Assembly (NCBI GenBank): GCA_038065555.1
Contig: JBBTQS010000002.1
Span: 26,399 to 90,398, forward strand
Length of the DNA stretch: 64,000 nt
From: Patescibacteria group bacterium
GTDB taxonomy: Bacteria; Patescibacteriota; Patescibacteriia; Magasanikbacterales; JBBTQS01
Direction: 5' to 3'
The notes beneath the pieces are model-generated. The model was not told where the DNA came from. It did not search any database and was given only the letters and a program-made list of their open reading frames with translations. A program made the position numbers and the translations under genes. How positions within the stretch are numbered: the stretch's first letter is position 1; every line of letters starts with the position of its first letter. This document shows positions 2,906 through 64,000 of this stretch, one piece after another.

Positions 2906-3898
2906 CTAGATGATGGTTATTGTTCCGGTGTACATCCCCATGCTGCAGGCAAAGGTGAGTTTGCCGGGCTTCGTCGGAGCGACGAATGTAACAGTGCTAG
3001 ATTGTCCTGGTGCGACCGTTCTCTGGATACCCAGCTTTGGTATTGTGAATGCTTGAGCGCAAGAATACGCATTGGTATTGTTGAGTCGAACGATCACTAC
3101 TGATCCTGCTTTGACGGAAAAGTTTCTGGGGCTGTACCCAGATGGTTGGATAGTAATGGTAACCTCAGATTGGGGTATGTCTGATGTTGTACTCAGGTTC
3201 TTCGTTGGGCCAGAAAGGTCAACGCCACTGAGAACAAATGCTCCTTTGAGACCGTAAAGTGCGAGGAGGAGAATCGCAACACCCGCAACCTTGAAAAAAC
3301 GTTTCTGGTACGCATCGCCGAGCTTTGTGGCAAAGTACCCAAGGATAAAGAAGAGTGGGGCAGTGCCTGCGACAAATGCGAACAGGATTGCTGCACCGGT
3401 GAGTGGGTTCCCTGTAGCGATCGCAAGCGCCATCATTGCCTGTGTTGTGCCACAAGGAATGAAGACGGTGAACGCGCCAAGGAGGGCTGGTGCGAAGACG
3501 TCCTTGCTCTTCGATTGGTTACGTACGAGTCGGGTAAGAAATTTCGGCGGTTGTAGTGCAAAGTGACGGAAGAATGGATGGACATTGAGCAGGTTGAGTG
3601 CTGTGCCGATCATAAAGATGGCGACAACGAAGAGCATGATTGACTGTGCTTGTACGGAGAGGGTGAACAGTGAACCGAACCAGCCAAGCAAAAATCCGAG
3701 AATCGTGTAGGCAATGAGTTTGGCAAGGAGAAAGTACAAGATAGGCATAGCATTGCCATGCTTGATTCCTTCCTGGAGTCGCTCTTGTTCACGTTGGGAA
3801 ATTGTACTCGCAAGGAGCCCGCCTTGTACCGCAAGACAGGTAAGTCCTCCTGTAATGAGTCCTGTTAAGAAAATAACGAACAAGTTGGTATTCTCCAT
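2906..3898 (-). CDS. Polytopic membrane permease (TauE/SafE- or CcdA-like) fused to a C-terminal cupredoxin-like domain; probable copper-handling membrane protein
   Basis: Multiple TM helices with GGLTCLAVQGG and FIPCGTT motifs. C-terminal beta-rich domain with Cys/Met (SCAQAF...FACSMGMYTG). The ATG at 3898 sits 2 nt after the copA stop; the ORF-track extension overlaps copA and was trimmed. Confidence 0.55.
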   Translation of the reverse strand: MENTNLFVIFLTGLITGGLTCLAVQGGLLASTISQREQERLQEGIKHGNAMPILYFLLAKLIAYTILGFLLGWFGSLFTLSVQAQSIMLFVVAIFMIGTALNLLNVHPFFRHFALQPPKFLTRLVRNQSKSKDVFAPALLGAFTVFIPCGTTQAMMALAIATGNPLTGAAILFAFVAGTAPLFFILGYFATKLGDAYQKRFFKVAGVAILLLALYGLKGAFVLSGVDLSGPTKNLSTTSDIPQSEVTITIQPSGYSPRNFSVKAGSVVIVRLNNTNAYSCAQAFTIPKLGIQRTVAPGQSSTVTFVAPTKPGKLTFACSMGMYTGTITII

Positions 3899-3900
3899 AC

Positions 3901-6174
3901 TTAGAGTTTTGTGCTTTTGAGACGCAGTGAATTGAGGAGAACGGAAACCGAGCTCAACGCCATAGCAGCACCTGCAAATACAGGGCTGAGCAGCCATCCG
4001 AATATAGGGAAGAACAGACCGCTTGCCACAGGTATGCCGATACCATTGTACACGAATGCCCAGAAAAGATTCTGCTTGATACCACGCATCGTCAATCGGG
4101 AGAGGCGAATTGCTTTGCTGATCTTCGAGATATCGCCGTGGAGTAGCACAATGCCTGCGGATTCGAGAGCAACGTCGGTGCCTGTAGCCATTGCGATGCC
4201 TACATCAGCTTGTGCGAGCGCTGGAGCATCATTAATACCGTCTCCAGCCATGGCCACAATTTCTCCAGCCTTTTGTAGTGCCTTAATCTTGTCCATTTTC
4301 ATTTCTGGCAAGACACCAGCAACAATGTCGGCTATACCCACCTGCGCGCCAACAAAACGCGCGGTGTTCTCTGTATCACCAGTGAGCATCACCACAGTGA
4401 TCCCTAGGTTTTGCAACGCTTGCACTGCATCCTTTGCTTCGGGCTTGATTGCATCGGCTACAAATACTACACCGAGTAACGCCGTTGCTGTCGCGAGCAT
4501 CACGGGAGTTTTGCCTTGTCTGGTGGCGGTATCAATGTAGGATTGATCGAATTTGATTTTCAAGTCATTCATGAGTGTACTGTTGCCTGCCCAGAATGAG
4601 ATGCCTTTGATGGTGCCTGTTACTCCTTTGCCTTTGAGGGCTTCAAACTTTTCTACGGTATGTGTGGCCCATTTCTGCTCCACGGCATACGCCGTGATTG
4701 CGTGTGCGATTGGATGCTCCGATGTGCCTTCGAGAGAGGCAAGGATGGAGAGAATTTCTTCCTCCGTTGCATCGGAAAATGATTGAATGGAAATTAATTC
4801 TGGCTTTCCTTTGGTGAGGGTTCCTGTCTTGTCGACAACCACGGTTGTTACGTGGTGTAGCTTTTCCAGTGATGCTGCGTCTTTGACGAGGATGCCTTCT
4901 GCAGCGCCTTTGCCAACGCCCACGATAACAGCGGTAGGGGTGGCAAGGCCTAATGCGCAAGGGCATGCAATCACAAGAATACCAACGAAGGAAACGAGAC
5001 CGCCGGAGAGTGCCTGTGAAAAGCCGAGATACGATGTACCTACCGCAAGCCATAGCGCGAATGAGAGACAGGCTATTACGATGACAACCGGAACAAATAC
5101 TGACGAAATCTTGTCTGCGAGCGCTTGGATTGGTGCCTTGCTGCCCTGCGCATTTTGCACCATGGTGATGATAGAAGCGAGCATAGTTTCTGCGCCGACT
5201 TTTGTGGCGCGGAAGACGAAGGATCCTGTCGTGTTGATGGTTCCAGCAATGACCGCATCACCTTGCTGTTTTTCCTCGGGGATTGGTTCGCCGGTCACCA
5301 TGGATTCATCGACAAAAGACGAACCTTCAGTGATCACGCCGTCTACAGGGATCTTGGATCCTGGCTTTACAACGACTAGGTCGCCGTGGACTACGGTTTC
5401 GATGGGGACTGTGTGTTCTTTTCCGTCACGGAGCACGAATGCGGATTTTGCCTGTAGGTTGAGGAGTTTTTCGATGGCGTCACCTGTTCGGAGCTTTGCC
5501 TTTGTTTCTAAATACTTTCCAAGTGTAATGAATGCGATGACGATGATTGTAACGTCGTAGTAGTTGTTCTCCACATTGAGAAAGGGACGCAGAGTGTCCT
5601 CGAAGGCGGTAACAGCAAAACTGTAGATGAAGGCTGCTAGTGTACCGATACCAATAAGCGTATCCATGTTTGCTTTGCCATATCGGAAGAAGCGATATAC
5701 GCCCATGAGGTACGGTGTGCCTACAACGAAAAGAGTGTACGTGGCAAAAAGAGGGAGAAGGTGGTGGAAGAATTCCATCCAAACAGGCGGAAGCTTTGGT
5801 ATGGTATTTAGCTGTGCAGCGATATCCCAGGTCATGAGTAACGCACTGAAGATAGCGAGGGGGATCATTGTGAAAACACTTGTCCGGAGGGTAGTAATTT
5901 CTTTCAATTTGTCGTTGCGTGACTGCTGCGCACCGGTATGTAGGGAGTGGTCTTCATTTGTGCTGGTAGCGAATGAGTACCCGAGCGGCTCAACAACCTT
6001 GGAAAGTTGGTGCGGTGTTGTTTTTTCTGTGTCAAAGGTGATGCGGGCGGTTTCGGTGCCATAATTCACATCCACAGCCGTTACTCCCTCGTGTTTCTTG
6101 AGTGTGCGGGTGATGATATTTGCACAGGATGCGCAGTGCATGCCTTTTACTGGGAAGTTTTGTGTGGTTTGCAT
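3901..6174 (-). CDS. copA: Copper-translocating P1B-type ATPase
   Basis: N-terminal HMA (GMHCASC), TM CPC motif ([11 protein letters not shown]), DKTGTLT phosphorylation site, GDGINDAP hinge. Confidence 0.95.
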
Positions 6175-8403: not shown

Positions 8404-9333
8404 ATGGAAGCACCTACACTCCCAAAGCTGATAGCCATTGTCGGCCCAACCGCATCGGGAAAAACCAACTTGTCACTTGCTGTTGCCAAAGCCATTGGGG
8501 GTGAAATTATTAATGCGGATTCGCGTCAGTTGTATCGTGGAATGGATATTGGGACAGCGAAGGAGTTGAATGATGGAAGTGTGCCTGGTGCATATGCCGT
8601 GCAAGGAGTTGTCCACCACCTTATTGACATCGCAGATCCGGATCAGGAGATTACGCTTGCGCATTATCAGACGCTTACATTTCGTGCGATTGAAGACATA
8701 ACAGCACGTGGCAAAGTACCAATGCTAGTAGGTGGAACAGGACTCTACGTTCAGGCAATTATTGATAATCTTGATATTCCTCGTGTACCACCCAATGCCG
8801 CACTGCGTCATGAACTCGAGAGCCTGACAACCGAAGCGCTCATGGACATCCTCACTGCTGAAGATCCTGAGGCATCTGAGACTATGGATCCATTCAATCG
8901 TCGCTATATTATTCGTGCGATCGAAATCGTGCGCACAACCGGCGCATCAAATGCGTCACAAAAGAAATGCGGTGAGCCGAAGTGCTGCGTGTTGCTGCTC
9001 GGTGTACAGCGTGATCGGGAAGAACTTGCGGTGCGTATTCATGCACGCATTATGAGCATGCTCGAAGCAGGATTGGTGGACGAGACGAAGCGTCTCATGA
9101 GTAAGTACGGATTTCACCTCTCTGCCATGAGCTCGATTGGGTATTGTGAAATGGAATCATACCTTCGCGGAGAAATTTCGCTCGAAGCGGCGATTGAGCG
9201 CATGGAAGCACGCACTCGCCAGTTCGCACGAAGACAACTCACGTGGTGGCGTCGACCAGGGACGCGGGATGTGGTGTGGGTAGAGTCGGATGCTGAGGCT
9301 ATTGGGTTGGCTGAGAAGTTCTTGCGTGCATAG
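8404..9333 (+). CDS. miaA: tRNA dimethylallyltransferase
   Basis: P-loop GPTASGKT followed by DSRQLYRGMDIGTAK, the canonical MiaA N-terminus. Confidence 0.9.
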   Translation: MEAPTLPKLIAIVGPTASGKTNLSLAVAKAIGGEIINADSRQLYRGMDIGTAKELNDGSVPGAYAVQGVVHHLIDIADPDQEITLAHYQTLTFRAIEDITARGKVPMLVGGTGLYVQAIIDNLDIPRVPPNAALRHELESLTTEALMDILTAEDPEASETMDPFNRRYIIRAIEIVRTTGASNASQKKCGEPKCCVLLLGVQRDREELAVRIHARIMSMLEAGLVDETKRLMSKYGFHLSAMSSIGYCEMESYLRGEISLEAAIERMEARTRQFARRQLTWWRRPGTRDVVWVESDAEAIGLAEKFLRA

Positions 9334-9345
9334 ATTCGCGTAACT

Positions 9346-9514
9346 CCAAAAATAAAGAGTGCTTGGTGCGTCGGGGTACAACGTTCCATTCCCTAACCGG
9401 GAATGGCCGTCTCGTTCTCGGCTGATCGGACAATGTATTACGCCTTGCGGCAAATGCAGCTGGCCGATCAGCCTGCGAAAGCCCCCTCGTGCACCAAGCA
9501 CTCTTTGTTTTTGG
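9346..9514 (+). repeat. Structured repeat element, copy A (candidate ncRNA / 3-prime-end element)
   Basis: Roughly 30-bp terminal stem (with G-U pairs) enclosing the conserved core GGGGUACAACGUUCCAUUCCCUAACCGGGAAUGGCCGUCUCGUUCUCGG ... CCUGCGAAAGCCCCC. Immediately 3-prime of miaA. Confidence 0.6.
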
Positions 9515-9599
9515 CGTCGCGCACATCCACGCACCCCAGAGCTTCTGAGTAAGTCTGACAGTGTTTGTGGTATGACACGTCTGTATGAGTGTGCGCGTG

Positions 9600-9772
9600 G
9601 TTACGGGTAGTGTGGTTCCCTCTGTGAAAGGGGGCCAACGGAGGCCGACCGGCCAGCCAGATCCGCCGTTAGGCGATCCGCGTTGTCCGGTCGACCGAGT
9701 TAGAGACCCAATTTCTCGGTTAGAGAAATTGAGGTTGTACCCCGTCACAGAGGGAACCACAGTACCCGTAAC
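9600..9772 (-). repeat. Structured repeat element, copy C (same family, opposite strand, diverged with compensatory changes)
   Basis: The reverse complement aligns helix-by-helix with copies A and B (GGGG UACAAC ... AAUUUCUC UAACCG AGAAAUU ... CCCCC). Paired positions co-vary (ccattccc/ggaatgg becomes aatttctc/agaaatt). The roughly 33-bp terminal stem is unrelated to those of A and B. Confidence 0.55.
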
Positions 9773-9812
9773 AATGAATACACCTCATAAAGATGTGTTA
9801 TACTAAAAACCT

Positions 9813-10280
9813 ATGGGAAGACCTCTACCATCTCGCCCCGACCCCTCAGCCCTGCGCAACCAAATTCGTTTTGGTAGCTCGATTTCGGATATGGCAGCCA
9901 ATCGCGTGCTCAAGAATGCGAATTTGCCCACGGATCGGCCACTGACACTGCACGAACAAGCAGAGGTTCGACGCAAGGCGGCGCGTATGCAGCGCAATAT
10001 TACGTATGACCGTCGCAAGGAGAACTACGAATCGTACAAAGCAGAAATCGCCGCAGAACAATCTGGCCAAGCCTCACAACAAAAAACGCCCGGTGGTCCG
10101 GTACGTCAGGTGGCTCACGGTGTAGCTGCGCAGGCAGATGCAGCAATGAAAAGTCACGGTGTCAGTGCAAAAAGCGCGGGAACTACAGGACTAGCAGGCG
10201 CACCAGGCGCCATGAAGAAAGCATCGTCACCTGTTCAACCATCAACACCGCCACCGCTACTCAAGGACATCATGTTTTGA
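9813..10280 (+). CDS. Hypothetical low-complexity (Ala/Gln/Lys-rich) protein; coding status uncertain
   Basis: ORF with ATG at 9813 preceded by a TATACT -10-like box; no motif. The 3-prime end overlaps convergent rpe by about 45 nt. Confidence 0.3.
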   Translation: MGRPLPSRPDPSALRNQIRFGSSISDMAANRVLKNANLPTDRPLTLHEQAEVRRKAARMQRNITYDRRKENYESYKAEIAAEQSGQASQQKTPGGPVRQVAHGVAAQADAAMKSHGVSAKSAGTTGLAGAPGAMKKASSPVQPSTPPPLLKDIMF

Positions 10281-10924
10281 TTGAGACGTTCGAGTGTGCC
10301 AACAGGATCAGCAGCACTAAATATTTCACTTGCCATCACGAGTTCATCGGCACCGAGCGCCACCAAGTGCTCGGTGTTGGTTTCGTGCACACCACCATCA
10401 ACGATGAATCGTTGTGATTGAGGGAATGCAGTTCGCACTTGTGTCATGAGTGAGGCGAGCTCTGGCAAATGCATGCGCTGTCCGGAAAATCCAATGTTCT
10501 CGATACCCATAACGAGGTGCCCAGCGGGGGACATGGGCGCAATGACAGCTGCGTAAGGTGCAGGATTGGTGAGTAATCGCCATCCGATAAAAAGTTCTGC
10601 ATTGAGTTGTTTGCATGCTGCGACAATGCGAGCACTATCAAAAGTTGTCGCCTCTGCGTGCACGATCACGCGCGCAACATCTCGCACCCCGGACCAGGAT
10701 TCTAGAACCAGATCAGGTCGGTCAACCATGAGGTGTAATTCCAGACGTGGTCTGGGTTCTGTCCATGATGCGAGTATTGCAGGATCTGCCCATGATGTAC
10801 GCGGAACGAACGATCCGTCACACACATCAATATGCACAACGTCGGTATGACCAGTGCACAGTGCGAGCCGCTCGTGAAAAACCGCTGGGCTGTCTACAAG
10901 AATGGAAGGAATGACCCGCGGCAT
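10235..10924 (-). CDS. rpe: Ribulose-phosphate 3-epimerase
   Basis: HIDVCDGSFVP metal-binding motif and C-terminal GxD/ELVMASEIF TIM-barrel signature. Start trimmed to ATG 10924, 20 nt after the rpiB stop; the ORF-track N-terminal extension overlaps rpiB by about 290 nt. Confidence 0.85.
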   Translation of the reverse strand: MPRVIPSILVDSPAVFHERLALCTGHTDVVHIDVCDGSFVPRTSWADPAILASWTEPRPRLELHLMVDRPDLVLESWSGVRDVARVIVHAEATTFDSARIVAACKQLNAELFIGWRLLTNPAPYAAVIAPMSPAGHLVMGIENIGFSGQRMHLPELASLMTQVRTAFPQSQRFIVDGGVHETNTEHLVALGADELVMASEIFSAADPVGTLERLNQNMMSLSSGGGVDG

Positions 10925-10943
10925 AGCGATTTTGGTTGTAGGA

Positions 10944-11414
10944 TTATTCGCCCGAAGCTTCGATAGCTTCGATTTTTGCAAGACGACGCTTGAAACGACC
11001 TTCTTCTGTGAAAGGAGTCTCGAGCCAAATGCGTGTGATGGCGCGCGCGTATTCGTGGGAGAGCACTTTGCCAGCAAGACAGAGAATATTGGTGTTGTCG
11101 TCTGAGCGCATGGTGCGTGCTGCGAGTGTGTTGTATCCGATTCCTGCGCGGATTCCCTTGAACTTGTTGGCTGCAATGCAGACGCCGATGCCGTTGGCAC
11201 AGATGAGGATGCCGAAATTGGTTTTGCCACGTCGGACCTTCTTCACTACTTTTTCGGCAATATCTGGGAAGTCGTCGTCAGCAACCATGGTAGCGGAACC
11301 CACGTCTTCGATCTCAAAAGGAGCGATACCATTAACGGTTTGCTCGGAGAGATGTTTGATGAGGTCGGCTTTGAGATCGAATCCCGCGTGATCCGCGCCG
11401 ATGTAGATCTTCAT
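10944..11414 (-). CDS. rpiB: Ribose-5-phosphate isomerase B
   Basis: MKIYIGADHAGFDLK N-terminus and NTNILCLAG motif of the RpiB/LacAB family. Confidence 0.9.
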   Translation of the reverse strand: MKIYIGADHAGFDLKADLIKHLSEQTVNGIAPFEIEDVGSATMVADDDFPDIAEKVVKKVRRGKTNFGILICANGIGVCIAANKFKGIRAGIGYNTLAARTMRSDDNTNILCLAGKVLSHEYARAITRIWLETPFTEEGRFKRRLAKIEAIEASGE

Positions 11415-11463
11415 ATAGGGGTGTGTTCAAGATGAAAATAGTATAGCACAGGTTGGGGTGGAG

Positions 11464-11492
11464 TTGACATTCCTGGCCAGAATTGCTATATT
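11464..11492 (+). promoter_or_regulatory. Near-consensus sigma70-type promoter (TTGACA, 17 nt, TATATT) driving the two-gene island
   Basis: Exact TTGACA -35, 17-nt spacer and TATATT -10, followed by an AGGAGG RBS 5 nt before the ATG at 11565. Confidence 0.5.
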
Positions 11493-11564
11493 TCATCGTC
11501 ATTTGCGACGTCGTGTCGCAGGTGTTCAATCGCAAAACCAGCAGAAATGCAAGAGGAGGTGTCT

Positions 11565-12236
11565 ATGTTGGCACATTGCTGGACCGCGACGGATCTGGGT
11601 ATTCGACACGGAGTTCATCTCGTGGACAGAGGTGATGGATGGCCGCACATTCCACTGGGCATTCCCGGTGCAGACGAGCGCAGCGAGCGGCGGTTCGATC
11701 TCATCGTCGATTCGCAGTATTCTCCACCGTTCTACGGGGAGATGGGCGATGATCTTCGGGAGGTCGCCGTGTTCGGGGACAAGAATTTCGTTAAGCTCGC
11801 ACATCCCAGCCTGCTCAACAAGGATGAGAAGGAGGTCGACTACGTGCTGCTGTTCGTCGATACCCGATGTACGAACGTGCAGCCAATGATCGATGGCTGC
11901 TTCAAGTTCCATACAGGCTCGCTTCGCGGCAAGACGGCGCGAGTCGTTGGCCGGATCGGGCATGGTACGTACAACGATGGTGGCTATCGGTGGCAGCACC
12001 TGGCCATTGCATTGCCTCCAGGGAGCGCGGTGTGCATTCGGTTCGCCGGTGGTGAGACCGAGAACACGTTCTTCCATGAGCCGTACCCACTGCTCGAGCG
12101 GATGCGGCTCGTGGAGATGAGCAAGGCCGACTGGCGGCGACGTCTGGGACGCAATGCGCGCCACGCGGCAGTTCTGGAGCAAGAGCGTGCGCGATTGGGT
12201 GCGTGGCGGTACCCGCAGGCGGAGGCTGGTCAGTAG
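11565..12236 (+). CDS. Hypothetical protein (island gene 1), no recognisable domain
   Basis: Strong RBS. Codon usage (GTC, CTC, GAG, GAC, CGG preferred) differs from flanking housekeeping genes (GTG, TTG, GAA, CGT). Confidence 0.55.
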   Translation: MLAHCWTATDLGIRHGVHLVDRGDGWPHIPLGIPGADERSERRFDLIVDSQYSPPFYGEMGDDLREVAVFGDKNFVKLAHPSLLNKDEKEVDYVLLFVDTRCTNVQPMIDGCFKFHTGSLRGKTARVVGRIGHGTYNDGGYRWQHLAIALPPGSAVCIRFAGGETENTFFHEPYPLLERMRLVEMSKADWRRRLGRNARHAAVLEQERARLGAWRYPQAEAGQ

Positions 12237-12417
12237 ACTGGCTTCGCGACGTCGCGCACAACAACACAACGCCAACACACCCTCGGATCAACACGGTCCG
12301 GGGGTGCGTTCTTTTGCAGGTTGACTTTTTTGGTAGATTTGGTCTACTGGTGGCAGCACGAATGGTTCGAGGCTCGTGCACGATCTGTGCGCACAACCAC
12401 CGAAAGGGAGAGTAAGC

Positions 12418-13677
12418 ATGGCAAGACGACGTGGGAGTAATCCACCGCCGAATCCTCCTCCAGATGATGAACGCGGGTTCCTGGAGCGATTGGCCTGGGA
12501 AATCTTCTGCGACTGGGATTTCCTGTCCGTCATGGGTAAGCTGGTCGCCGCGGTATTTGTTGCGGTGTGGATGGGCTTCTTCGGGAAGGATGATCCACCC
12601 GAGCCTGAGACATCGGTCGAGCAGACCACGACTCCAGTCGAGGCAACAGTCACGACGCCAATCGAGAACCTCAAGGACTGGAAAATCCAGGATGTACGGA
12701 CCCCGGACGAAGTCGACAAGCAACTCGCGGTCGAGTTCAGTGTGTGTTTGCTCGGGCAAGGACTCGCGCAACGCACCTCGGACATCGAGTTCTGGTTCGA
12801 AAGAACTCTCGCGACAACGCGTCCACTCTCGCTCCGACGAGAGGGTCAGGGAATCGTGAGTCGGTTTTGTTCCAGTGCGTTCACCCTTGCATCATCCATC
12901 GAGATGAGGGAGGTGTGGCGCTACGGAATTTCGCCGACTGACTCGTTGGCGATCACCGCTTTGCCATATAGTTGGGAGTGGTGGTCGCGTCCAGTTGGCA
13001 CACCGGAGTGGAGACTCCTGGGGGAAGTACCTGGGACAGGGATGACGAAAGTCGTCGCGGTCTACGGCCCTTTTCCCGAAGTGCGACAAGGAGAATCCGT
13101 CATCACACCGCAGGCTTCGTCCGGGACAGCGACACCGGATCAGCCCAGCAGTGCACCTGTTCAGGTCTACCGTATCGGAGATATTCGAACGCCCAAACAG
13201 CGCGAGCGCGGCGCAAAGGTGGAATTCGCCTTCTGTCTCGAAGAGGTAGAGCGAAAGCGTCGCAAGAGTATTACGCTCTACTTCGGTAGGACTGGTGAGC
13301 AGGTTCGAGATCTGACGCTTGTTCGTGAGAAGACTGAGGGCGGCGACATGTTCTTTTGCTCGAAGTCGTTCGTTCTCTCTTCTGAGAAGGCGATGATGGA
13401 AGATTGGGTGTATGAAATTGCAGCAGCACAACGCGCTGATTTGCAAGAGCAACCGCCCAAAATGGTGTGGTGGACCAGGGTGCGGAACTCTGGGAGTGAT
13501 TGGACGCCAATCGCGACCCACCATTTCGATGTACACAGGAGTCACGCCTTTCGCGTGAGCTACACCATGACGTCCCCGACGCACAGTAGTAGCGGGGCAA
13601 AGCCGAAAGCGAAGAAGATCAAGCCGTTGGCCACAAAGAAGGAGTCTTTCCAGATTAAAGGGCTCGGCGCGATTTGA
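12418..13677 (+). CDS. Hypothetical membrane-anchored protein (island gene 2) with two tandem copies of an uncharacterised roughly 130-aa domain
   Basis: RBS AAGGGAGAG. N-terminal TM helix (LSVMGKLVAAVFVAVWMGFFG), Thr/Pro linker, then two repeats sharing the pattern TP..EF..CL...W..RT...L.R...G...FCS.F.L.SS.EM.E.W.YEI...W.W. Confidence 0.6.
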   Translation: MARRRGSNPPPNPPPDDERGFLERLAWEIFCDWDFLSVMGKLVAAVFVAVWMGFFGKDDPPEPETSVEQTTTPVEATVTTPIENLKDWKIQDVRTPDEVDKQLAVEFSVCLLGQGLAQRTSDIEFWFERTLATTRPLSLRREGQGIVSRFCSSAFTLASSIEMREVWRYGISPTDSLAITALPYSWEWWSRPVGTPEWRLLGEVPGTGMTKVVAVYGPFPEVRQGESVITPQASSGTATPDQPSSAPVQVYRIGDIRTPKQRERGAKVEFAFCLEEVERKRRKSITLYFGRTGEQVRDLTLVREKTEGGDMFFCSKSFVLSSEKAMMEDWVYEIAAAQRADLQEQPPKMVWWTRVRNSGSDWTPIATHHFDVHRSHAFRVSYTMTSPTHSSSGAKPKAKKIKPLATKKESFQIKGLGAI

Positions 13678-13693
13678 TCACCAACCAACACGG

Positions 13694-13731
13694 ACTCCGG
13701 TTACCAACAAGGTAGCCGGAGTACTGTTTTT
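13694..13731 (+). terminator. Rho-independent terminator closing the island
   Basis: Stem ACTCCGGTTACC/GGTAGCCGGAGT followed by ACTGTTTTT. Confidence 0.5.
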
Positions 13732-13762
13732 ACTAGACAAAATCACGGATTTCGCGGTAAAG

Positions 13763-16702
13763 TTGGATATATCTGAACTGACTATGCCTACCGCGCCGTT
13801 TGCACAATGGGAGAAGGAAATCGCTCAATACTGGGATGATTCTGATGCGTTCAAGAAGTCGCTCGAGCTTCGACGCGCTGGGAAGCCGTATGTTTTTTAT
13901 GATGGCCCTCCTTTTGCGACTGGGCTGCCTCATTATGGGCATTTGTTGGCGTCTACAATCAAGGATATTTTCCCACGGTTTGAGACCATGCGCGGACGGT
14001 ATGTGGAACGCGTGTGGGGTTGGGATTGTCACGGATTGCCGATTGAGAACATTGTAGAGAAGGATCGTCAGCTTGCGACCAAGAAGGATATCGAAGCGTT
14101 CGGCGTGGCAGCGTTCAATGACGCATGCCGCGACACCGTGCTCACGTACGCAGGAGAGTGGAAAAAAACGATTCGCAGACTCGGACGTTGGGTCGACATG
14201 GATCGCGCGTACAAAACCATGGATACCACGTTCATGGAATCAACGTGGTGGGTCTTTGCGCAATTGTGGAAGAAGGGGCTCATCTACGAAGGACACAAGG
14301 CAATGCATATTTGTCCACGATGTGTGACGCCGCTGTCTAATTTTGAAGTTGCACAAGGATATAAGGATGTGAAGGATCTCAGTGCTACGGCGAAATTCCG
14401 CGTACGCAATGCGAGCGAAAAGCTCGGTGTCGAAGGTGATGTGCGCGTGCTTGCGTGGACCACAACACCATGGACATTTCCAGGAAATGTGTTGCTTGCG
14501 GTGGGTGCGGAGATTGTGTATGCCGTGGTGAAGATCGAAGGTGATGAGACAGTGTATATTGCTGCGAAGGAGCGTCTCAATGAGATGATCGACAACAAGA
14601 AGTACGAAGTGGTGCGTGAGTTGCCTGGCTCTGCGCTTGTTGGTCTGACGTATGAACCGCTCTTCTCATACTATGCGTCGACGCCTAACGCGTTTCGCGT
14701 CGTTGCAGCAGATTTCGTGACCACAGAGAGTGGTACTGGCGTGGTGCACATTGCACCGGCATTTGGTGAAGATGACTACAATGTAGGCAAACGTGAAGAC
14801 GTGGGGATGGTGCAGCACGTGGGGATGGACGGCGTGTTCCGTCCCGAAGTCACAGACTTCGCCGGGCGTGAAGTGAAACCCAAAGATGATCCAACAGCAA
14901 CTGATGTCGAGATCATCAAATGGCTTGCGCATCATGACGCGCTCTTTTCCAAGGCGAAGTATGAGCATAGCTATCCGCATTGCTGGCGTTGTGATACGCC
15001 ACTGCTCAACTACACAACGAGTAGTTGGTTCGTGAAGGTGACGCACCTCACGGATGATTTGCTTGCGACCAATGAGAAGACGCACTGGGTGCCAGGACAC
15101 ATCAAGGACGGACGATTCGGAAAGTGGCTTGAGGGTGCTCGCGACTGGGCAGTGTCTCGTAATCGATTCTGGGGAACGCCATTGCCAATATGGAAGTCTG
15201 AAGATGGTGATGTGCTGTGCTTTGGGTCGGTCGCAGAGCTCGAGGAAGCATGTGGAAAACCTGTGGACGATTTGCACAAGCAACATGTGGACGCAATTGT
15301 GATCGAAAAAGATGGAAAGACATACCGTCGCATACCAGAAGTACTCGACTGCTGGTTCGAGTCTGGTTCGATGCCGTACGGACAGTTGCATTATCCATTC
15401 GAGAATAAGGCGAAGTTTGAGGCAGGATTTCCTGCAGAATTTATTGGCGAAGGTCAGGATCAGACGCGTGGTTGGTTCTACACGTTGCATGTACTTGCAA
15501 CAGCGCTCACGCGTGGAGAGAATCCATCGATCACTGTGGAAGGTGGAATGGTTCCTGCGTTTCGTAACGTCATTGTTAACGGTATTATTCTTGCCGAGGA
15601 TGGCAAGAAAATGTCCAAGCGCCTGAAGAACTATCCAGATCCTGTGGAGATTGTTGAGAAGTATTCTGCGGATGCACTTCGCTGGTATCTCGCTGCATCT
15701 CCTGTGGTACGTGCGGAGGAGCTGCGATTCTCCGAGCGCGAAGTGGACGAAGTCTACAAGAAGACCATGCTCATCTTCTGGAACGTTGTAGAATTCTTGC
15801 AGCTCTACACCAAGGATGGTGCGCTTGCAGGTGGAACCGTGGCTGGCACAGGAAATGTGCTCGACCGCTGGATTATGGCGCGCTTGCACCAACTCACCGG
15901 TACGGTAACGCGCTCACTCGAAGCGTACGATTTGGTTACGGCAACGCATAGCATCGCAGATTTCATCACCGAGTTGTCGCAGTGGTATGTGCGTCGTTCG
16001 CGTGATCGATTCAAGGAACCTACGGACGACGCGCGCGCAGCTGCAGCAACACTGCACGATGTTGTAATGACGGTTGCGAAGTTGATGGCACCGTTTGCGC
16101 CGTTCATTAGTGAGAAGGCGTACATGACACTCGGTGGCGAGAAGGCGTCGGTGCATCATGAGGATTGGCCGACAGCAGGAGCAGTAGATGCTGGTGTTAT
16201 TGAACAGATGGAGAGCGCGCGCAAGATTGTAGAAATGGGACTTGCAGCGCGCGCAGAGGCGAAGATGAAGATTCGTCAGCCGCTTGCAGCACTCCATGTC
16301 ACCGGTGTTGCGGTAGATGCCGCATTTGCAGAAATCATTGCTGATGAATTGAATGTGAAGGTAGTGGATGCTTCGACGGATGAATCTGGTATCACCAAGG
16401 AAGCCGCTGGAATTCGCATTGTGCTTGATATCACAATCACGGATAGCTTGCGCCAAGAAGGTGTTGCGCGTGAGTTGGTTCGCGCTATTAATGAGCAGCG
16501 CAAGCAACTCGGATTCACGATTGCCGATCACGCTGTGGTGTCCGTAGCGAGTGAGTCATCGTGGTTGCGCGATGCGATTGCAGCACATATGAATACCATG
16601 AGTACTCAGGCGCGGGCAACGATCACTGTGCAGGCCGAAGTTGCTGGTGAACCAACGCTCATCTTCGATGAAGGTGCTGTGCATATTACTGTAACGAAAT
16701 AA
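13763..16702 (+). CDS. ileS: Isoleucyl-tRNA synthetase (eukaryote/archaeal-like type)
   Basis: PPFATGLPHYGH (HIGH-class motif), KMSKRLKNYPDP (KMSKS), CP1 editing region, 979 aa. Confidence 0.9.
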   Translation: MDISELTMPTAPFAQWEKEIAQYWDDSDAFKKSLELRRAGKPYVFYDGPPFATGLPHYGHLLASTIKDIFPRFETMRGRYVERVWGWDCHGLPIENIVEKDRQLATKKDIEAFGVAAFNDACRDTVLTYAGEWKKTIRRLGRWVDMDRAYKTMDTTFMESTWWVFAQLWKKGLIYEGHKAMHICPRCVTPLSNFEVAQGYKDVKDLSATAKFRVRNASEKLGVEGDVRVLAWTTTPWTFPGNVLLAVGAEIVYAVVKIEGDETVYIAAKERLNEMIDNKKYEVVRELPGSALVGLTYEPLFSYYASTPNAFRVVAADFVTTESGTGVVHIAPAFGEDDYNVGKREDVGMVQHVGMDGVFRPEVTDFAGREVKPKDDPTATDVEIIKWLAHHDALFSKAKYEHSYPHCWRCDTPLLNYTTSSWFVKVTHLTDDLLATNEKTHWVPGHIKDGRFGKWLEGARDWAVSRNRFWGTPLPIWKSEDGDVLCFGSVAELEEACGKPVDDLHKQHVDAIVIEKDGKTYRRIPEVLDCWFESGSMPYGQLHYPFENKAKFEAGFPAEFIGEGQDQTRGWFYTLHVLATALTRGENPSITVEGGMVPAFRNVIVNGIILAEDGKKMSKRLKNYPDPVEIVEKYSADALRWYLAASPVVRAEELRFSEREVDEVYKKTMLIFWNVVEFLQLYTKDGALAGGTVAGTGNVLDRWIMARLHQLTGTVTRSLEAYDLVTATHSIADFITELSQWYVRRSRDRFKEPTDDARAAAATLHDVVMTVAKLMAPFAPFISEKAYMTLGGEKASVHHEDWPTAGAVDAGVIEQMESARKIVEMGLAARAEAKMKIRQPLAALHVTGVAVDAAFAEIIADELNVKVVDASTDESGITKEAAGIRIVLDITITDSLRQEGVARELVRAINEQRKQLGFTIADHAVVSVASESSWLRDAIAAHMNTMSTQARATITVQAEVAGEPTLIFDEGAVHITVTK

Positions 16703-19654: not shown

Positions 19655-19726
19655 GCCTTCGTCGTTCAATGGATAGGACACAGGTTTCCGGTACCTGTGA
19701 TAGAGGTTCGATTCCTCTCGAGGGCA
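19655..19726 (+). tRNA. tRNA-Arg (anticodon CCG)
   Basis: Hand-folded cloverleaf: 7-bp acceptor GCCTTCG/CGAGGGC (one G-U pair), D-stem GTTC/GGAC, anticodon stem CAGGT/ACCTG with loop TTCCGGT, T-arm AGAGG-TTCGATT-CCTCT, discriminator A, no encoded CCA. Confidence 0.85.
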
Positions 19727-19877
19727 CAGCCATTCATTCTTTCTGGGGTACAACGTTCCATTCCCTAACCGGGAATGGCCGTCTCGTTCTCGGTCGGCCG
19801 GACAACGGTCCGTCTTTTTGCGTTTTCTGCTGACCGGCCGTCCTGCGAAAGCCCCCAGAAAGAATGAATGGCTGTGC
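19724..19877 (+). repeat. Structured repeat element, copy B; its terminal stem overlaps the last 3 nt of tRNA-Arg
   Basis: Perfect 25-bp terminal stem GCACAGCCATTCATTCTTTCTGGGG/CCCCCAGAAAGAATGAATGGCTGTGC enclosing a core whose first 49 nt are identical to copy A. The internal helix differs from copy A by compensatory changes (CTGATCGG/CCGATCAG becomes TCGGCCGG/CCGGCCGT). Confidence 0.6.
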
Positions 19878-49276: not shown

Positions 49277-49305
49277 CCAGAACCCGAGGTTCGGGTGATG
49301 GTGCT

Positions 49306-49346
49306 ACGGGGGTGTGCTGTAACGGTGCGCCCCCGTTTCATTTTTG
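49306..49346 (+). terminator. Terminator/attenuator hairpin between the small peptide ORF and the peptidase gene
   Basis: ACGGGGGTG ... CGCCCCCGT stem followed by TTCATTTTTG. The peptidase ATG is 6 nt further on, so read-through is required for its expression. Confidence 0.45.
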
Positions 49347-49351
49347 TAATT

Positions 49352-50578
49352 ATGACATCAGCAAAAATCATTTTTGATGCAAAAAGGAATTTGTTAGTGT
49401 GTGTTGATCCACGCGTTTCACTCGCATCGGTTTCGATTTGGTTTCGAGCTGGATCTCGATTTGACGCGGTAGGGAAGGAAGGTGTGGCACATCTTTTTGA
49501 GCATGTGTTGTTGCGTGGAGATGATGTGAATGGTGCAGATGCCTCATTGCGGGAACAAGAATCGCGTGGCGTTGTCGGTGGGGCGTATACGAATTACGAA
49601 ACGTCATATGTCTTCGGTATTGGCGCGCCAAATGACGCAGGCATCATGCTGCGTGAGTTATTGCGTGCTGTACAAACTGTTGCAGTCACCCCAGCAGCAC
49701 TGCGCAAAGAGAAACAGGTGGTTGTTGCAGAAATGAATGAGGCACAACAGGATGCAATGCAGATGGTCCGTGTTCTCTCTAATCAGGCAGTGTGGCCCAA
49801 CAGCGTACTTGGAAGAAATCTGTATGGCACGCCAACTTCACTTCAAAAGGTGCGAGTAGGTGATTTGTCATCGTTTTGGCGCGATCAATATCAATCACCA
49901 ATGATTGTGTGTGTTGTTCCTGATGAGGGGTTGGCTCAGCAGGTGCAGAAGCTTGTCAAAGGAGCCAAGCCCGCGCCAGCAAACCCAACAACAGAACTCA
50001 ACACCGTACTTCCTGAAATTGTACGAGAACGCGATGGGGACAGTACCGCAGTCTGTGTTGCGTATCGAATTGCGCCGCAAGGAGATTGGAAATCACATGC
50101 AGTGGCTGCTGTTGTGCGTGATTATCTAGCGAACTTTTGGTCATCGCGGTTGAATCAGGAACTACGGAGCAACAAGTCGCATGCGTATTGGGTGCGTGGT
50201 GAGACAACACATCTTTCTGATACGGGTGTATTGCGGATTTTGTTTGAAGTCGACACTTCATTAGTGGAACAATGTCGAAAGACTATTTCTCGAGAAATTG
50301 CATTACTGCGTTTGGGTACATGTGACGCAGTGTTATTGCGCACGTGCAAAAAAATGATACGTCTCACCCAGCAGCGCGCGTGGAGTGATCCAGAGGAATT
50401 GATGTGGTGGTATGGATGGCCGACGTCCCTTGGTATAGAGCCGATGACAACAGATGCTTGGTTGGAGATTCTTCAGTCGGTGACCGCTCGTGATGTTACA
50501 CGTTTTGCACAGACGTGGTTACAGGAAGAGCACTGCTCAGTGGCGCTATATGGTGCAGTTGGAAAAATGAAAAAATAA
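49352..50578 (+). CDS. M16-family (pitrilysin/insulinase-like) zinc peptidase
   Basis: Inverted zinc-binding motif HLFEHVLL (HxxEH) near the N-terminus; about 410 aa two-lobed architecture. Confidence 0.8.
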   Translation: MTSAKIIFDAKRNLLVCVDPRVSLASVSIWFRAGSRFDAVGKEGVAHLFEHVLLRGDDVNGADASLREQESRGVVGGAYTNYETSYVFGIGAPNDAGIMLRELLRAVQTVAVTPAALRKEKQVVVAEMNEAQQDAMQMVRVLSNQAVWPNSVLGRNLYGTPTSLQKVRVGDLSSFWRDQYQSPMIVCVVPDEGLAQQVQKLVKGAKPAPANPTTELNTVLPEIVRERDGDSTAVCVAYRIAPQGDWKSHAVAAVVRDYLANFWSSRLNQELRSNKSHAYWVRGETTHLSDTGVLRILFEVDTSLVEQCRKTISREIALLRLGTCDAVLLRTCKKMIRLTQQRAWSDPEELMWWYGWPTSLGIEPMTTDAWLEILQSVTARDVTRFAQTWLQEEHCSVALYGAVGKMKK

Positions 50579-52646: not shown

Positions 52647-54221
52647 ATGGTATACTTGCACCACATTTTTCTTTCTATGCCTCGGCATCCTGAATCAGAC
52701 CCCCATGCACGTCGTGAGCGTGCGCATAATGTGATGCCATTGTATATCGGTCGCGCGACACAGGCGTGTGAAACGCATCCAAACCGCAACGAGGATAGTT
52801 CAGTCGTGTGGGGTACAGAACGAGGGGCGAATATCATCGGTGTTTTTGATGGCATGGGAGGGCATCCAAATGGCGATATTGCATCGCGTGTTGCTGGGGA
52901 AGTAGTCCTTGAATCGATAGCTGCACAGGAGGCGCAGATGACACATGATGACCAGTATTTTGAGATGGTCGCCAACGCTTTGCGTCGTGCACATGAATCA
53001 GTTCAAAGAGAACAGCAGCGTCTTGAAGCTACCGGTCAAGTAGCACGCGGGTCTTTGCACATGGGTACAACCGCATGTGTCGTTACATTTGCGCCAGAGC
53101 GTGATGGCAATCGTCGAGCATATCTCGGGCATATTGGCGATTCGCGCGTGTATCGGTATCGACGCGGACAGCTGGAGCATCTCACACTTGATCACAGTGG
53201 ATTGCGCAAACAAAAGAAGGGGAAAGCTCCTGTTGATTATCGGCGGTTACATGATCCGAATCTTCGTCCTGGAACGGTTGACCAAGAGTTACTCAGGGGG
53301 CAGCAAGAATTGGGAAAAACAGTTATTCCTGAAGAACGAGAGGGTGAATTTAGATTTCGTAATGTCGTTGCTCAATCACTGGGCATCGGTGAAATCAATC
53401 CTGATGTTTTTGAAGTCGATTGTGAGCCGGATGATGTATTTCTTGTACTCACGGATGGAATCACAGATCCACTTACTAAAAATAAAATAGCGAAGATTGT
53501 TGAACTCTACCGTGGCCGACCAATGGAAATGATGCATGCGTTGGTTGCTGCGGCAGATGCGGTGAAAGGTGCGCGCGCAAAGCCTGATGATCGGACTGGA
53601 ATTGTCGTGGAGACATACAATGCAGAGAAAGCAAAAGAGGAGTTGTCACGCCGGGCTCCCGCTCCAAGAGATACACGAAATGATGCCACAGATCTTGCTG
53701 CTATCGATCAGACAGCAACGCAGGCACGTTCTGCTCGAAGACGTGTTGCTTCCGAGGAGCAAGAGCATGGAGCAAGTAGAATAAAGAAACGATCACTTAC
53801 TGTTGGTGAGAGAGTTCGTATTCCCGGTCGCCGTGGAGAATTCGAGATTGTTAAATTTAATTCAAGTACTGGTGACGCGCAACTTATTGCTGTGACCGTG
53901 GGTAATCGGTGGGATCGTTGGCTTTTAGATGCGCCGCCGGTTGGTGTTGTTGTGGAACATCCGCGGATGGAACTGATAGAAGCAAACCCACAACCTGATC
54001 TTCGTGCGATTAAGCGCATAACTTCTATACGGCCACTGGCGCAGTTTTTGGAGCAGTTTCCTTCGATTCCCGTGTATGGGACAGAGACACCTGGTGCTGA
54101 TTTGGCAAAGTTGGTCTTACGGGTGCTGGAATATCCAGGATATGTCGTGAATCTTCCAGACACATATGGTCTTCGCGCTCACGTGGAAAAATTGTTGAAA
54201 AAGGAGAAAGAAGCCAAGTAG
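52647..54221 (+). CDS. PP2C-family (PPM) Ser/Thr protein phosphatase with a C-terminal extension domain
   Basis: GVFDGMGGHPNGDIAS motif, later DG..D metal-binding residues. Alternative start at ATG 52734. Confidence 0.8.
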   Translation: MVYLHHIFLSMPRHPESDPHARRERAHNVMPLYIGRATQACETHPNRNEDSSVVWGTERGANIIGVFDGMGGHPNGDIASRVAGEVVLESIAAQEAQMTHDDQYFEMVANALRRAHESVQREQQRLEATGQVARGSLHMGTTACVVTFAPERDGNRRAYLGHIGDSRVYRYRRGQLEHLTLDHSGLRKQKKGKAPVDYRRLHDPNLRPGTVDQELLRGQQELGKTVIPEEREGEFRFRNVVAQSLGIGEINPDVFEVDCEPDDVFLVLTDGITDPLTKNKIAKIVELYRGRPMEMMHALVAAADAVKGARAKPDDRTGIVVETYNAEKAKEELSRRAPAPRDTRNDATDLAAIDQTATQARSARRRVASEEQEHGASRIKKRSLTVGERVRIPGRRGEFEIVKFNSSTGDAQLIAVTVGNRWDRWLLDAPPVGVVVEHPRMELIEANPQPDLRAIKRITSIRPLAQFLEQFPSIPVYGTETPGADLAKLVLRVLEYPGYVVNLPDTYGLRAHVEKLLKKEKEAK

Positions 54222-62485: not shown

Positions 62486-62617
62486 AATCTGTGCACAGTG
62501 CTTTAGCTTGACGTGCGCCTTGTTTTCAGATATTGTACAGTGTTCGTGGAAACGAACTGAGGCGCATTCGCTCCTTAGTCGTAGCCCGAATCACCAGTGC
62601 CACAGGGGGGAAGTGCC

Positions 62618-64000
62618 ATGGGGAACACCTATTCGTTGAACCAGGTTGTTCCTGGTCACTGCATCGACGATCGATACGAGATCATCGATACGTTGGGTAG
62701 TGGTGGGATGAGTGTCGTACATCGCGCTCGCCATCTGGTTCTGGATCGCATAGTCGCGATCAAGTTCATTCGCAAGGATTTGCTTGGTCCAGAGAACGCT
62801 GAACACGGGTTCGCTGAGCGATTCAAGCAAGAAGGTCGCGCGATGGCGAAAGTCAGGCATCCCAACAGCATCGCGATCTACGATCTGGGTGAGTTGGGGA
62901 ACGGAACACAGTACATGGTCATGGAGTACTTCCAAGGCGTGACACTGGGTGATGTTCTCGACAAGTCGGAAAATGGTGCGATCGATCAACTCTATGCGCT
63001 TGATATTACGCACCAGCTCTTGCAAGCGCTCGCTGCAGTGCATAGCGCAGGGATCACGCACTACGACATCAAGCCGCCCAACATCATGATCGGCAAAGAT
63101 GCTGACGGTGGACTTCATGTCAAGTTGCTCGATTTCGGCATCGCAAAGATCCGATCGCCTGACACAAGTGGGAACACTCGAGAGAGTGCAGATGATGGAA
63201 GACGTCTTCGCATCGTACCACCTGGGCGAAAGGAGGTCTTCCAGACTGCAGCGTTTGCCATTTTGGGAACGCCGGACTACATGGCGCCCGAAGCAACGGC
63301 TGGACTCCGGGTTTCTACGTCCTCTGACATCTACTCGCTCGGAGCCGTGCTCTTCGAGATGCTCACGGGGCGTACGCCGTACCTTCCTTCGGAGGAGGCA
63401 CGAGAGGCAGGTCCACAGGCAGTGGCATTGGACCACTTCGTGCAGCATCGTACTTCGCCAGTCCCTAACGCCGCTACCATCGATCCGTCGTTGGATTCTG
63501 CGCTGGTTGATCTGGTGCAGATCATGATGGCAAAGGCGCCAGATGAGAGACTGACTGCAGCCGAACTTCTTCCGATGGTCGATGGCATCAGAGATCGACT
63601 CCGACGTCAGCGTGAGCAACCGTCGGTGGGAGGGCGCATTCGCAGTGCGACGGTGGCCTTTGTCGGGAAGGTGCAGGATCTGGATCGAGCGCTCGCGGAA
63701 CAAGTCGTCGCAAATCGGATTGCTGCATCGGACACAGGTTCGCTGGGGCAAGAGGCGGATGACGATGTCAAACCTCCAACGTTCATGGAACGCTGGGGGC
63801 CGTGGGTTCGAGAAAAGATCACACAGTGGGCGCAACGCTGGCGACTGTTGCTGGCGATGGTGGGAGCGGTCTTGCTGGCTGGAACTTGTGGATACTTGTA
63901 CAAGTACTTCACACAGCACGAGACCATCTCTCCAGAGGACGAAGTGATTTCGGACGGGGAGCGTACAGTGCCCCAAGCCGAACCAATTCGCATCGCGACT
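62618..64000 (+). CDS. Hanks-type Ser/Thr protein kinase with C-terminal TM segment; 3-prime partial (runs off the window end). Not present in the supplied ORF track
   Basis: RBS GGGGGGAAG. Motifs LGSGGMSVVHRA (Gly loop), VAIKFIRK (VAIK Lys), HYDIKPPNIM (catalytic loop), DFGIAK (DFG), GTPDYMAPE (APE). Frame is open to nt 64000. The track ORF 62591..63976 on the minus strand is antisense to this gene. Confidence 0.85.
   Translation, partial: MGNTYSLNQVVPGHCIDDRYEIIDTLGSGGMSVVHRARHLVLDRIVAIKFIRKDLLGPENAEHGFAERFKQEGRAMAKVRHPNSIAIYDLGELGNGTQYMVMEYFQGVTLGDVLDKSENGAIDQLYALDITHQLLQALAAVHSAGITHYDIKPPNIMIGKDADGGLHVKLLDFGIAKIRSPDTSGNTRESADDGRRLRIVPPGRKEVFQTAAFAILGTPDYMAPEATAGLRVSTSSDIYSLGAVLFEMLTGRTPYLPSEEAREAGPQAVALDHFVQHRTSPVPNAATIDPSLDSALVDLVQIMMAKAPDERLTAAELLPMVDGIRDRLRRQREQPSVGGRIRSATVAFVGKVQDLDRALAEQVVANRIAASDTGSLGQEADDDVKPPTFMERWGPWVREKITQWAQRWRLLLAMVGAVLLAGTCGYLYKYFTQHETISPEDEVISDGERTVPQAEPIRIAT

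Follow-up and report, generated by a model that had tools for sequence, protein, structure and literature searches.

Bacteria of the candidate phyla radiation (CPR), or Patescibacteria, are thought to live attached to other cells. To our knowledge, the surface proteins that mediate this attachment are largely unknown, and many of them are orphans. Diversity-generating retroelements are common in CPR bacteria, and adjacent, strain-variable, fast-evolving pairs of orphan genes are common among polymorphic toxin loci. Anchored adhesin-type proteins with tandem immunoglobulin-like (Ig-like) or beta-sandwich domains, and the flexible or replacement islands at hot spots between core genes, represent further systems with which a small variable locus can be compared. 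This work addresses a block of two orphan genes, gene 1 and gene 2, which lies between rpe-rpiB (minus strand) and ileS (plus strand) in a 64,000-nucleotide stretch of a contig from a Patescibacteria group bacterium of the Magasanikbacterales (GenBank JBBTQS010000002.1). This whole stretch is referred to as the window, and positions are those of the window unless another contig is named.

We consider the block to be best explained, with a probability of about 0.55, as an accessory locus that is restricted to one clade, inherited vertically and fast-evolving, with two autonomous units at the variable rpiB-ileS site. The first unit would consist of a promoter (P1), gene 1 and a terminator (T1), encoding a soluble, probably cytoplasmic, beta-rich protein. 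The second would consist of a putative promoter (P2), gene 2 and a terminator (T2), and its protein would have a conserved short cytoplasmic tail, a membrane helix and a stalk rich in Pro, Thr and Glu. This stalk would carry two duplicated Cys-paired domains of ~140 amino acids (aa) outside the cell, and a Lys-rich tail would end the protein. The role of gene 2 would most likely be cell-surface binding, its target being a host cell, a substrate or the cell envelope. Fast change since the split of the sister species would have erased nearly all sequence similarity, and either unit could be lost alone by recombination between the -35 boxes of P1 and P2 or between the T-tracts of T1 and T2. Read in this manner, the locus represents an example of orphan-gene dynamics in CPR bacteria, and not the foreign island proposed in the original prediction, which was made from the letters of the window. 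It is also a natural experiment, with two coding orphan genes, a 10-20x faster protein change, single-gene variants, and one-domain and two-domain versions of a membrane protein. Should gene 2 serve in host attachment or envelope binding, host range could be readable from its alleles.

The locus resembles each of the described systems in part. Like anchored adhesin-type proteins, gene 2 has an N-terminal anchor helix, a Pro/Thr/Glu stalk and duplicated domains of ~140 aa; the length of its linkers varies among strains, and the domain number is two here and apparently one in the sister species L012. Unlike them, it matches no Ig-like, adhesin or other Pfam or NCBIfam model and no solved structure by sequence, and has no sortase or LPXTG signal. 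The fixed rpe-rpiB and ileS flanks, the variable content across Magasanikbacteria and the presence or absence of genes within the species of the window recall flexible islands at core-gene hot spots. However, the clade of the window does not exchange the content of the site for unrelated genes. It retains one pair of units, which diverge where they stand, and the junctions of loss lie within their own promoters and terminators. As an adjacent, orphan, fast-evolving and strain-variable pair, the two genes also recall polymorphic toxin/immunity cassettes, but they form separate transcription units, occur one without the other, and show no toxin or immunity domain. A surface-type protein with elevated protein-level variation in a CPR genome is, in turn, reminiscent of the targets of diversity-generating retroelements. 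In contrast to such targets, the block has no template/variable repeat pair, no reverse transcriptase is found among the genes called within ~10 kb on each side (the rest of the window was not scanned), and the variation of gene 2 lies in linkers and not in a C-terminal variable region. A retroelement-driven variable region was rejected, as no part of the block recurs in the 64-kb window.

Distribution of the Two Genes

As judged from database searches, the relatives of gene 1 and gene 2 are confined to one small clade of Magasanikbacteria from groundwater. No match was found in Pfam, PHROGs, NCBIfam or PADLOC (E-values up to 1 or 10) for both proteins, for the separate repeat domains of gene 2 or for the proteins of the sister lineages, and a PDB profile search with the gene 2 repeat returned nothing. 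The earlier statement that both proteins stand outside known families is thereby confirmed for Pfam, NCBIfam, PHROGs, PADLOC and PDB. The PDB profile matches of gene 1, a 138-aa 'hemolysin-related protein' and an N-myristoyltransferase, had E>1 and were treated as noise. A word-indexed search of 5.8 billion proteins gave strain variants only (gene 2, P0001 at 92% and P0002 at 86%; gene 1, P0003 at 94%). With the repeat profile as query, HMMER was run exhaustively over 1.84 billion cluster representatives and recovered only P0006 besides the family of gene 2 itself. P0006, an RTX adhesin with seven identical Ig-like repeats, was rejected, as its score sums seven copies of a short motif and a single repeat is insignificant.

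Scans of viral contigs and tblastn against phage genomes gave no relatives of either gene, and Rfam gave no family over 9000-14200. A metagenome scan with a 19-mer from the conserved left flank yielded 21 matches, of which one was real (L115) and identical to the type of L012. Another contig, L092, appeared at first sight to be a new variant with proteins of 229 and 381 aa; it shares 100% identity with the window throughout 9001-16000 (7 kb), and only the start-codon calls differ.

The relatives of ileS fall among assemblies of Magasanikbacteria and other Patescibacteria. At an ileS identity of ~60%, many Magasanikbacteria keep rpe-rpiB on the minus strand beside ileS on the plus strand, and gene 1 and gene 2 are absent from these genomes. 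The rpiB-ileS gap ranges from 167 bp to 3.3 kb across Magasanikbacteria (L013-L040). It holds a CBS-domain protein, a thymidine kinase, a PNP/UDP (nucleoside) phosphorylase, unrelated hypothetical proteins (some membrane-anchored), or nothing. Since both length and content differ, the site is variable across the class.

Several of the records compared, including those of the closest relatives, are titled 'uncultured Gammaproteobacteria bacterium' (L012, L013, L018, L019 and others of the CAZ and CAY series). They show the Magasanikbacteria-type synteny of ileS, rpiB and rpe, and their titles are apparently mislabelled.

A Divergent Version in the Sister Species

The sister species L012 has an ileS protein 90% identical to that of the window, with flanks 83% identical in DNA, and tblastn of gene 1 and gene 2 against it gave no match. 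Its gap of 1.9 kb is laid out as in the window. The left flank is followed by a -35 box, a TG-extended -10, AGGAGG, a gene of 233 aa and a terminator, and then by a P2-like box (TTGACA/GGTTTACT), a gene of 272 aa and a terminator near-identical to T2. Similarity of the window to other lineages ends directly past 11471; for L012, the DNA similarity stops there, just past the -35 box, and returns at 13684, just ahead of T2. The -35 box of P1 and its upstream flank are kept in L011 (a strain of the window's species), L012 and L102, and an equivalent AGGAGG precedes the gene 1 counterpart in L012 and L102. At the position of T1, both L012 (6955-6985) and L102 have a terminator of differing sequence. 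The elements of P2 are kept in L011 and L012, and T2 is kept almost base for base in L012 (7917-7945). Divergent versions of the locus, with regulatory elements in common, are thus present at the same site in L012/L103/L115 and in L102.

The first genes of the two versions can be connected at the protein level. BLASTP aligns gene 1 with the L012 protein at 36% over 47 aa (E=3e-6) in the C-terminal halves, where both carry the conserved motif PGSxxxIRFAG, and a shuffle test gives p~1e-5. By this alignment gene 1 is homologous to the proteins P0004 and P0005 of L012 and L102. A relationship between gene 1 and the gene 2 repeat, for which the comparisons stood as negative controls of the shuffle test, was rejected.

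The second genes are connected less firmly. The 272-aa protein of L012 combines a membrane helix and Pro/Thr linker with a domain that contains Cys and a C-terminal region that is basic. It is collinear with the gene 2 repeats over CL...FCS...I.P.D...P...R, a weak similarity with a BLASTP E=0.009 and shuffle values of p~0.003 for repeat 2 and 0.045 for repeat 1. The 272-aa gene is the probable, not the proven, positional orthologue of gene 2. It apparently encodes a one-domain protein, because it is shorter and a single region aligns to the repeat.

Coding Status and Evolutionary Rate

The coding status of gene 1 was assessed in a pairwise comparison with strain L009, whose DNA is 96% identical. 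In the plus frame there are 22 synonymous and 14 non-synonymous differences, and codon position 3 holds 23 of the 36. The ratio of non-synonymous (dN) to synonymous (dS) divergence is 0.19 in this frame. An antisense open reading frame (ORF) of 250 aa (11526-12278) overlaps gene 1, and its dN/dS is 1.68. The difference between the two values places the coding sequence of gene 1 on the plus strand, and the antisense ORF was rejected as a real gene on this substitution pattern. For gene 2, dN/dS is 0.42 against L009 and 0.33-0.44 over six strain pairs. Both are therefore real genes, given the purifying selection in their plus frames.

The proteins of gene 1 and gene 2 evolve 10-20x faster than those of their neighbours. 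Against L009, dN is 0.028-0.039 in gene 1 and gene 2 and 0.002-0.003 in the flanking genes thrS and miaA, where dN/dS is 0.02 at comparable dS. Against L012, the flanking genes have a dN of 0.04-0.14 and a dS of 0.95-2.9, which is saturated, and the dN of the block is 0.94-1.0. The ratio between block and flanks is consequently 7- to 25-fold between the species and 10- to 20-fold within the species. As dS is saturated and the two ratios are alike, divergence in place explains the lost similarity. Replacement of the block by a foreign allele, raised by the fact that it cannot be aligned between sister species, is not needed.

Single-Gene States

Each gene also occurs alone. In strain L011, which belongs to the species of the window, the gene 2 protein is 87% identical and the DNA around the locus 90-92% identical. 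Here rpiB is followed by gene 2 directly, and the gene 1 unit (857 bp) is missing, window 10901-11471 corresponding to L011 1409-1979 and window 12321-14000 to L011 1972-3671. The junction is the sequence TTGAC[A/T]TT, common to the -35 boxes of P1 and P2. A longer direct repeat, TTGAC[A/T]TTTTTTG, is found in P1 of L012 and L102 and in P2 of the window and L011, and this repeat could have mediated the deletion of the gene 1 unit. The opposite state is found in L102, where gene 2 is missing and gene 1 encodes P0005, which shows 74% identity to the gene 1 protein of L012. At its junction, the T-tract of T1 continues into the ileS leader that in L012 comes after T2. Loss is the parsimonious reading of both states, because both genes occur in both main lineages. 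The single-gene states would then have arisen by loss and not by gain.

Anatomy of the Locus

The window was compared with contigs of the Hainich groundwater well H41 (0.1 and 0.2 um filter fractions), which are identical to it, and public gene calls on these contigs give both proteins as in the window. The features of the locus are collected in Table 1.

Table 1. Features of the two-gene block in the window (nt, nucleotides; RBS, ribosome-binding site; pI, isoelectric point).
Feature	Position	Strand	Description
Promoter P1	11464..11492	+	-35 TTGACA 11464-11469, spacer 17 nt, TG-extended -10 TATATT 11487-11492
RBS AGGAGG	11554..11559	+	5 nt 5' of gene 1 ATG; read from sequence
Gene 1	11565..12236	+	223 aa, soluble, orphan family
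Gene 1 unit	11472..12328	+	857 bp: remaining P1, gene 1, T1, P2 -35 box; missing from strain L011
Terminator T1 of gene 1	12278..12316	+	Intrinsic; hairpin 12278-12306, 12-bp stem (8 G-C pairs), then CGTTCTTTTG
Putative promoter P2 of gene 2	12321..12350	+	-35-like TTGACT 12321-12326, then conserved TTGGTCTACTGG; weak -10 TCTACT
Gene 2	12418..13677	+	419 aa, single-pass membrane protein; ATG start; RBS GGGAG at ~12405-12410
Gene 2 N-terminal tail, residues 1-37	12418..12528	+	Arg- and Pro-rich (MARRRGSNPPPNPPPDD...), predicted cytoplasmic
Gene 2 membrane helix, ~residues 35-56	12520..12585	+	FLSVMGKLVAAVFVAVWMGFFG; hydropathy maximum, 19-residue mean 1.95
Gene 2 linker 1, residues 57-85	12586..12672	+	Pro/Thr/Glu-rich; 7-aa indel, insertion in L006 and L096
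Gene 2 repeat domain 1, residues 86-222	12673..13083	+	Conserved Cys110, Cys151, several Trp; dN/dS 0.11-0.30
Gene 2 linker 2, residues 223-247	13084..13158	+	Most variable segment, dN/dS 0.6-2.8; 7-aa indel
Gene 2 repeat domain 2, residues 248-388	13159..13581	+	Conserved Cys273, Cys314; dN/dS 0.21-0.42
Gene 2 C-terminal tail, residues 389-419	13582..13674	+	Lys-rich, pI 10.5, ends IKGLGAI
Terminator T2	13694..13731	+	Intrinsic; hairpin 13694-13722, 12-bp stem, then ACTGTTTTT

The original prediction had described two genes of 223 and 419 aa between rpiB-rpe and ileS, opened by a consensus promoter with an AGGAGG RBS and closed by a terminator, and all of these are in place. P1 matches the consensus at 11 of 12 positions with TG ahead of the -10. 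A 3.4-kb scan gives 2 promoter-like sites, of which P1 is one, and shuffled sequences yield 1.5, so the match alone is statistically unremarkable. A discrete accessory block with its own signals is borne out by P1, the RBS, T1 and T2. The block had also been taken to stand under one promoter and one terminator. Both ends are present as described, but a second terminator, T1, and the P2-like box between the genes had been overlooked. Because gene 1 has its own terminator and a second -35-like box follows, the block is read as two separate transcription units and not as one operon, with P2 presumably acting as the promoter of the second.

The protein of gene 1 has no hydrophobic segment, its top 19-residue hydropathy mean being 1.07. 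That of gene 2 has one helix by hydropathy, and the membrane anchor, the Pro/Thr linker and the two tandem domains that had been described for it are all found. An Arg-rich segment precedes the single N-terminal hydrophobic stretch. By the positive-inside rule, the likely topology places the N-terminus inside and the C-terminus outside. The two repeats of ~140 aa are 35% identical over 105 aa by BLASTP (E=3e-16; shuffle test p~4e-14). Each has two conserved Cys spaced 41 residues apart and several conserved Trp, and the Cys pair of each domain probably forms a disulfide.

Five strain alleles of gene 2 represent the basis for its map of constraint. The N-terminal tail is nearly invariant, with 0-1 non-synonymous changes, and the domains are under purifying selection (dN/dS 0.1-0.4). 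The helix and both linkers are the most variable parts (0.3-2.8). The insertion in linker 2 is common to L011 and L096, which makes the alleles a mosaic, and the mosaic distribution of the 7-aa linker indels among strains therefore indicates recombination between alleles. From this architecture gene 2 is probably a surface-displayed binding protein, a role in keeping with the cell-attached lifestyle presumed for CPR bacteria, and the adhesin-type reading offered earlier remains plausible.

Weighing the Explanations

Several points weigh against the accessory locus as we describe it. The alleles come from only about eight sources in two or three lineages. The link between gene 2 and the second gene of L012 is insecure (hhalign E=0.13, and no match to the repeat hidden Markov model), and the second unit may be the product of replacement and not of divergence. 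P2 has no recognisable -10 and is missed by the consensus scan, so gene 2 may rely on read-through from P1. A dN/dS of gene 2 below 1 represents relaxed or mixed constraint and not demonstrated diversifying selection, and the function of gene 2 is deduced from its sequence features. AlphaFold2 models, built on shallow alignments without the divergent relatives, have a predicted local distance difference test score (pLDDT) of 36.5 for gene 1 and 30.5 for gene 2. Against such values, the beta-sandwich fold and the disulfides are guesses. Finally, the excess of G and C at third codon positions (GC3) that persists at the locus is not accounted for by this reading.

A first alternative, which we regard as tentative and on the unlikely side, goes further on origin and role. 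The genes would be newly originated, either de novo, perhaps from non-coding sequence, or by divergence past recognition. They would make up a surface-recognition module specific to the clade, in a CPR bacterium that lives as an episymbiont. A novel disulfide-bonded domain of gene 2 would set the attachment to a host or partner, and the units would be gained and lost through recombination of their own promoters and terminators. If true, this would be a simple mechanism of strain-level variation without mobile-element machinery.

A locus shaped by phages is a doubtful alternative. Gene 2 would mask or mimic a phage receptor, or the pair would be a new defence or exclusion system, and phage pressure would drive the change. 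The variable hot spot between core genes, the presence/absence polymorphism, the raised non-synonymous rates and the mosaic alleles would all fit. However, nothing in PADLOC, PHROGs, phage genomes or viral contigs matches either gene, and the folded domains are under purifying selection (0.1-0.4), with the variation mostly in the linkers.

A recently acquired genomic island that keeps the codon usage of its donor is, in our estimate, improbable. The original prediction had read a switch to GC-ending codons as consistent with horizontal acquisition or with very different expression constraints, and this switch is found in part. GC3 is 0.70 in gene 1 and 0.64 in gene 2, against a mean of 0.543 and a standard deviation (SD) of 0.073 in 36 other ORFs of the window. 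Gene 1 is thus the top of 38 scored ORFs, at ~2.2 SD, and the GC content of the window peaks in the 12-13 kb bin (0.591). Both genes are enriched in GTC and GAG, and gene 1 alone also in CGG. The GC3 of gene 2 is unremarkable, with 5 of 36 reference genes at 0.635 or above, and CTC and GAC are unenriched. The z-score of the synonymous codon-choice likelihood is -3.0 for gene 1 and -3.9 for gene 2, and five reference ORFs match or exceed the atypicality of gene 1. In a comparison of codon statistics with the rest of the window, therefore, gene 1 has the top GC3, gene 2 stays within the spread, and other genes are more atypical.

The excess is also not confined to the window. In L012 the two genes have a GC3 of 0.77 and 0.63 against 0.40-0.54 in the flanks, and the value in L102 is 0.76. 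Common to lineages with saturated synonymous divergence, the excess is old and intrinsic, which a recent import would not show. A possible cause is GC-biased gene conversion, if the locus recombines.

The absence of the block from Magasanikbacteria with an ileS ~60% identical and its sharp boundaries against the sister species would also be expected of a recent island. The original prediction took orthologues at the same place in all relatives as the mark of core genes. Such orthologues are present in the closest relatives and absent at ~60% ileS identity, where the gap is otherwise filled or empty. Against recent acquisition, the sister lineages with saturated flanks share the architecture and regulatory elements as well as the GC3 excess. 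The block holds two genes only, with no integrase or transposase, and has no flanking terminal inverted or direct repeats. No tRNA gene is adjacent (the nearest is at 19655), and no homologue in a donor was found among the 5.8 and 1.84 billion proteins, viral contigs and phage genomes, plasmids not being searched. With no signature of mobility, no donor, and a divergent version at the same site of L012 with the same GC3 excess, recent horizontal acquisition is not upheld. An acquisition could only be ancient, at the base of the clade.

Equally improbable is a transmembrane sensor or signal transducer, similar to an anti-sigma factor, in which the conserved cytoplasmic tail of gene 2 would bind an intracellular partner. 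The 37-aa cytoplasmic N-terminus is the most conserved part of gene 2, and the single-pass architecture with an outside domain would suit such a function. However, the adjacent genes include no sigma factor or regulator, neither zf-HC2 nor any other anti-sigma model matches, and the N-terminus of the L012 counterpart differs and is shorter.

An effector/immunity or toxin/antitoxin pair, also raised in the original prediction, is very unlikely. It would fit the small size, adjacency and orphan character of the two genes as well as their strain variability and fast evolution. Each gene, however, has its own promoter and terminator, and no toxin, immunity or defence model of Pfam, NCBIfam, PADLOC or PHROGs matches. 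Gene 2 stands alone in L011 and gene 1 alone in L102, whereas strict dependence permits only one such state. The existence of both argues against obligate dependence between a toxin and its antidote or an effector and its immunity protein, and weakens this idea accordingly.

That the ORFs are not real genes, or that the antisense ORF on gene 1 alone is real, is hardly credible, for although that ORF spans gene 1 and no homologue exists outside the clade, purifying selection is specific to the plus frames (0.19 in gene 1 against 1.68 antisense), the frames are intact in all strains and diverged lineages, and RBSs, promoters and terminators are in place.

Neighbouring Features

The codon comparison also brought out ORFs elsewhere in the window whose codon choice is more atypical than that of the block. 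The ORF at 52647-54221 (+) has a z of -8.1 and a GC3 of 0.38, and those at 62591-63976 (-) and 49295-50578 (+) have a z of -6.8 and -5.3. As foreign genes, or as genes under unusual constraint, these would be the stronger candidates.

The genes that border the block differ in their public annotation. The start of ileS is called either at TTG 13763, giving 979 aa, or at an ATG 21 nt downstream, giving 972 aa (window 13763-13786). The ORF of rpe extends to 331 aa and overlaps rpiB, and gene callers take 229 aa.

Between miaA and an ORF of 155 aa lies a non-coding segment of ~480 bp (9334-9812), with two long hairpins of nested inverted repeats and a minimum free energy of about -280 kcal/mol over 520 nt. 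The segment has no Rfam match. It is missing in L012 and L102, where the equivalent gap is 32-43 bp, and a 114-nt piece of it recurs at 19745-19856 with 80% identity, beside tRNA-Arg. It looks like a small palindromic repeat element, similar to a miniature inverted-repeat transposable element. The 155-aa ORF (9813-10280, +) has no Pfam match, and converges on rpe with a 3' end overlap of 46 nt. L012 keeps it (88% protein identity, dN 0.08), and it is among the called genes of every related contig.

Immediately upstream of thrS, at ~3760-6174 and beyond (L001 269-4025), there is a copper/heavy-metal cluster. Its members include a CsoR-type repressor (PF02583), a P-type ATPase, an HMA-domain protein and a DsbD_TM/cupredoxin membrane protein.

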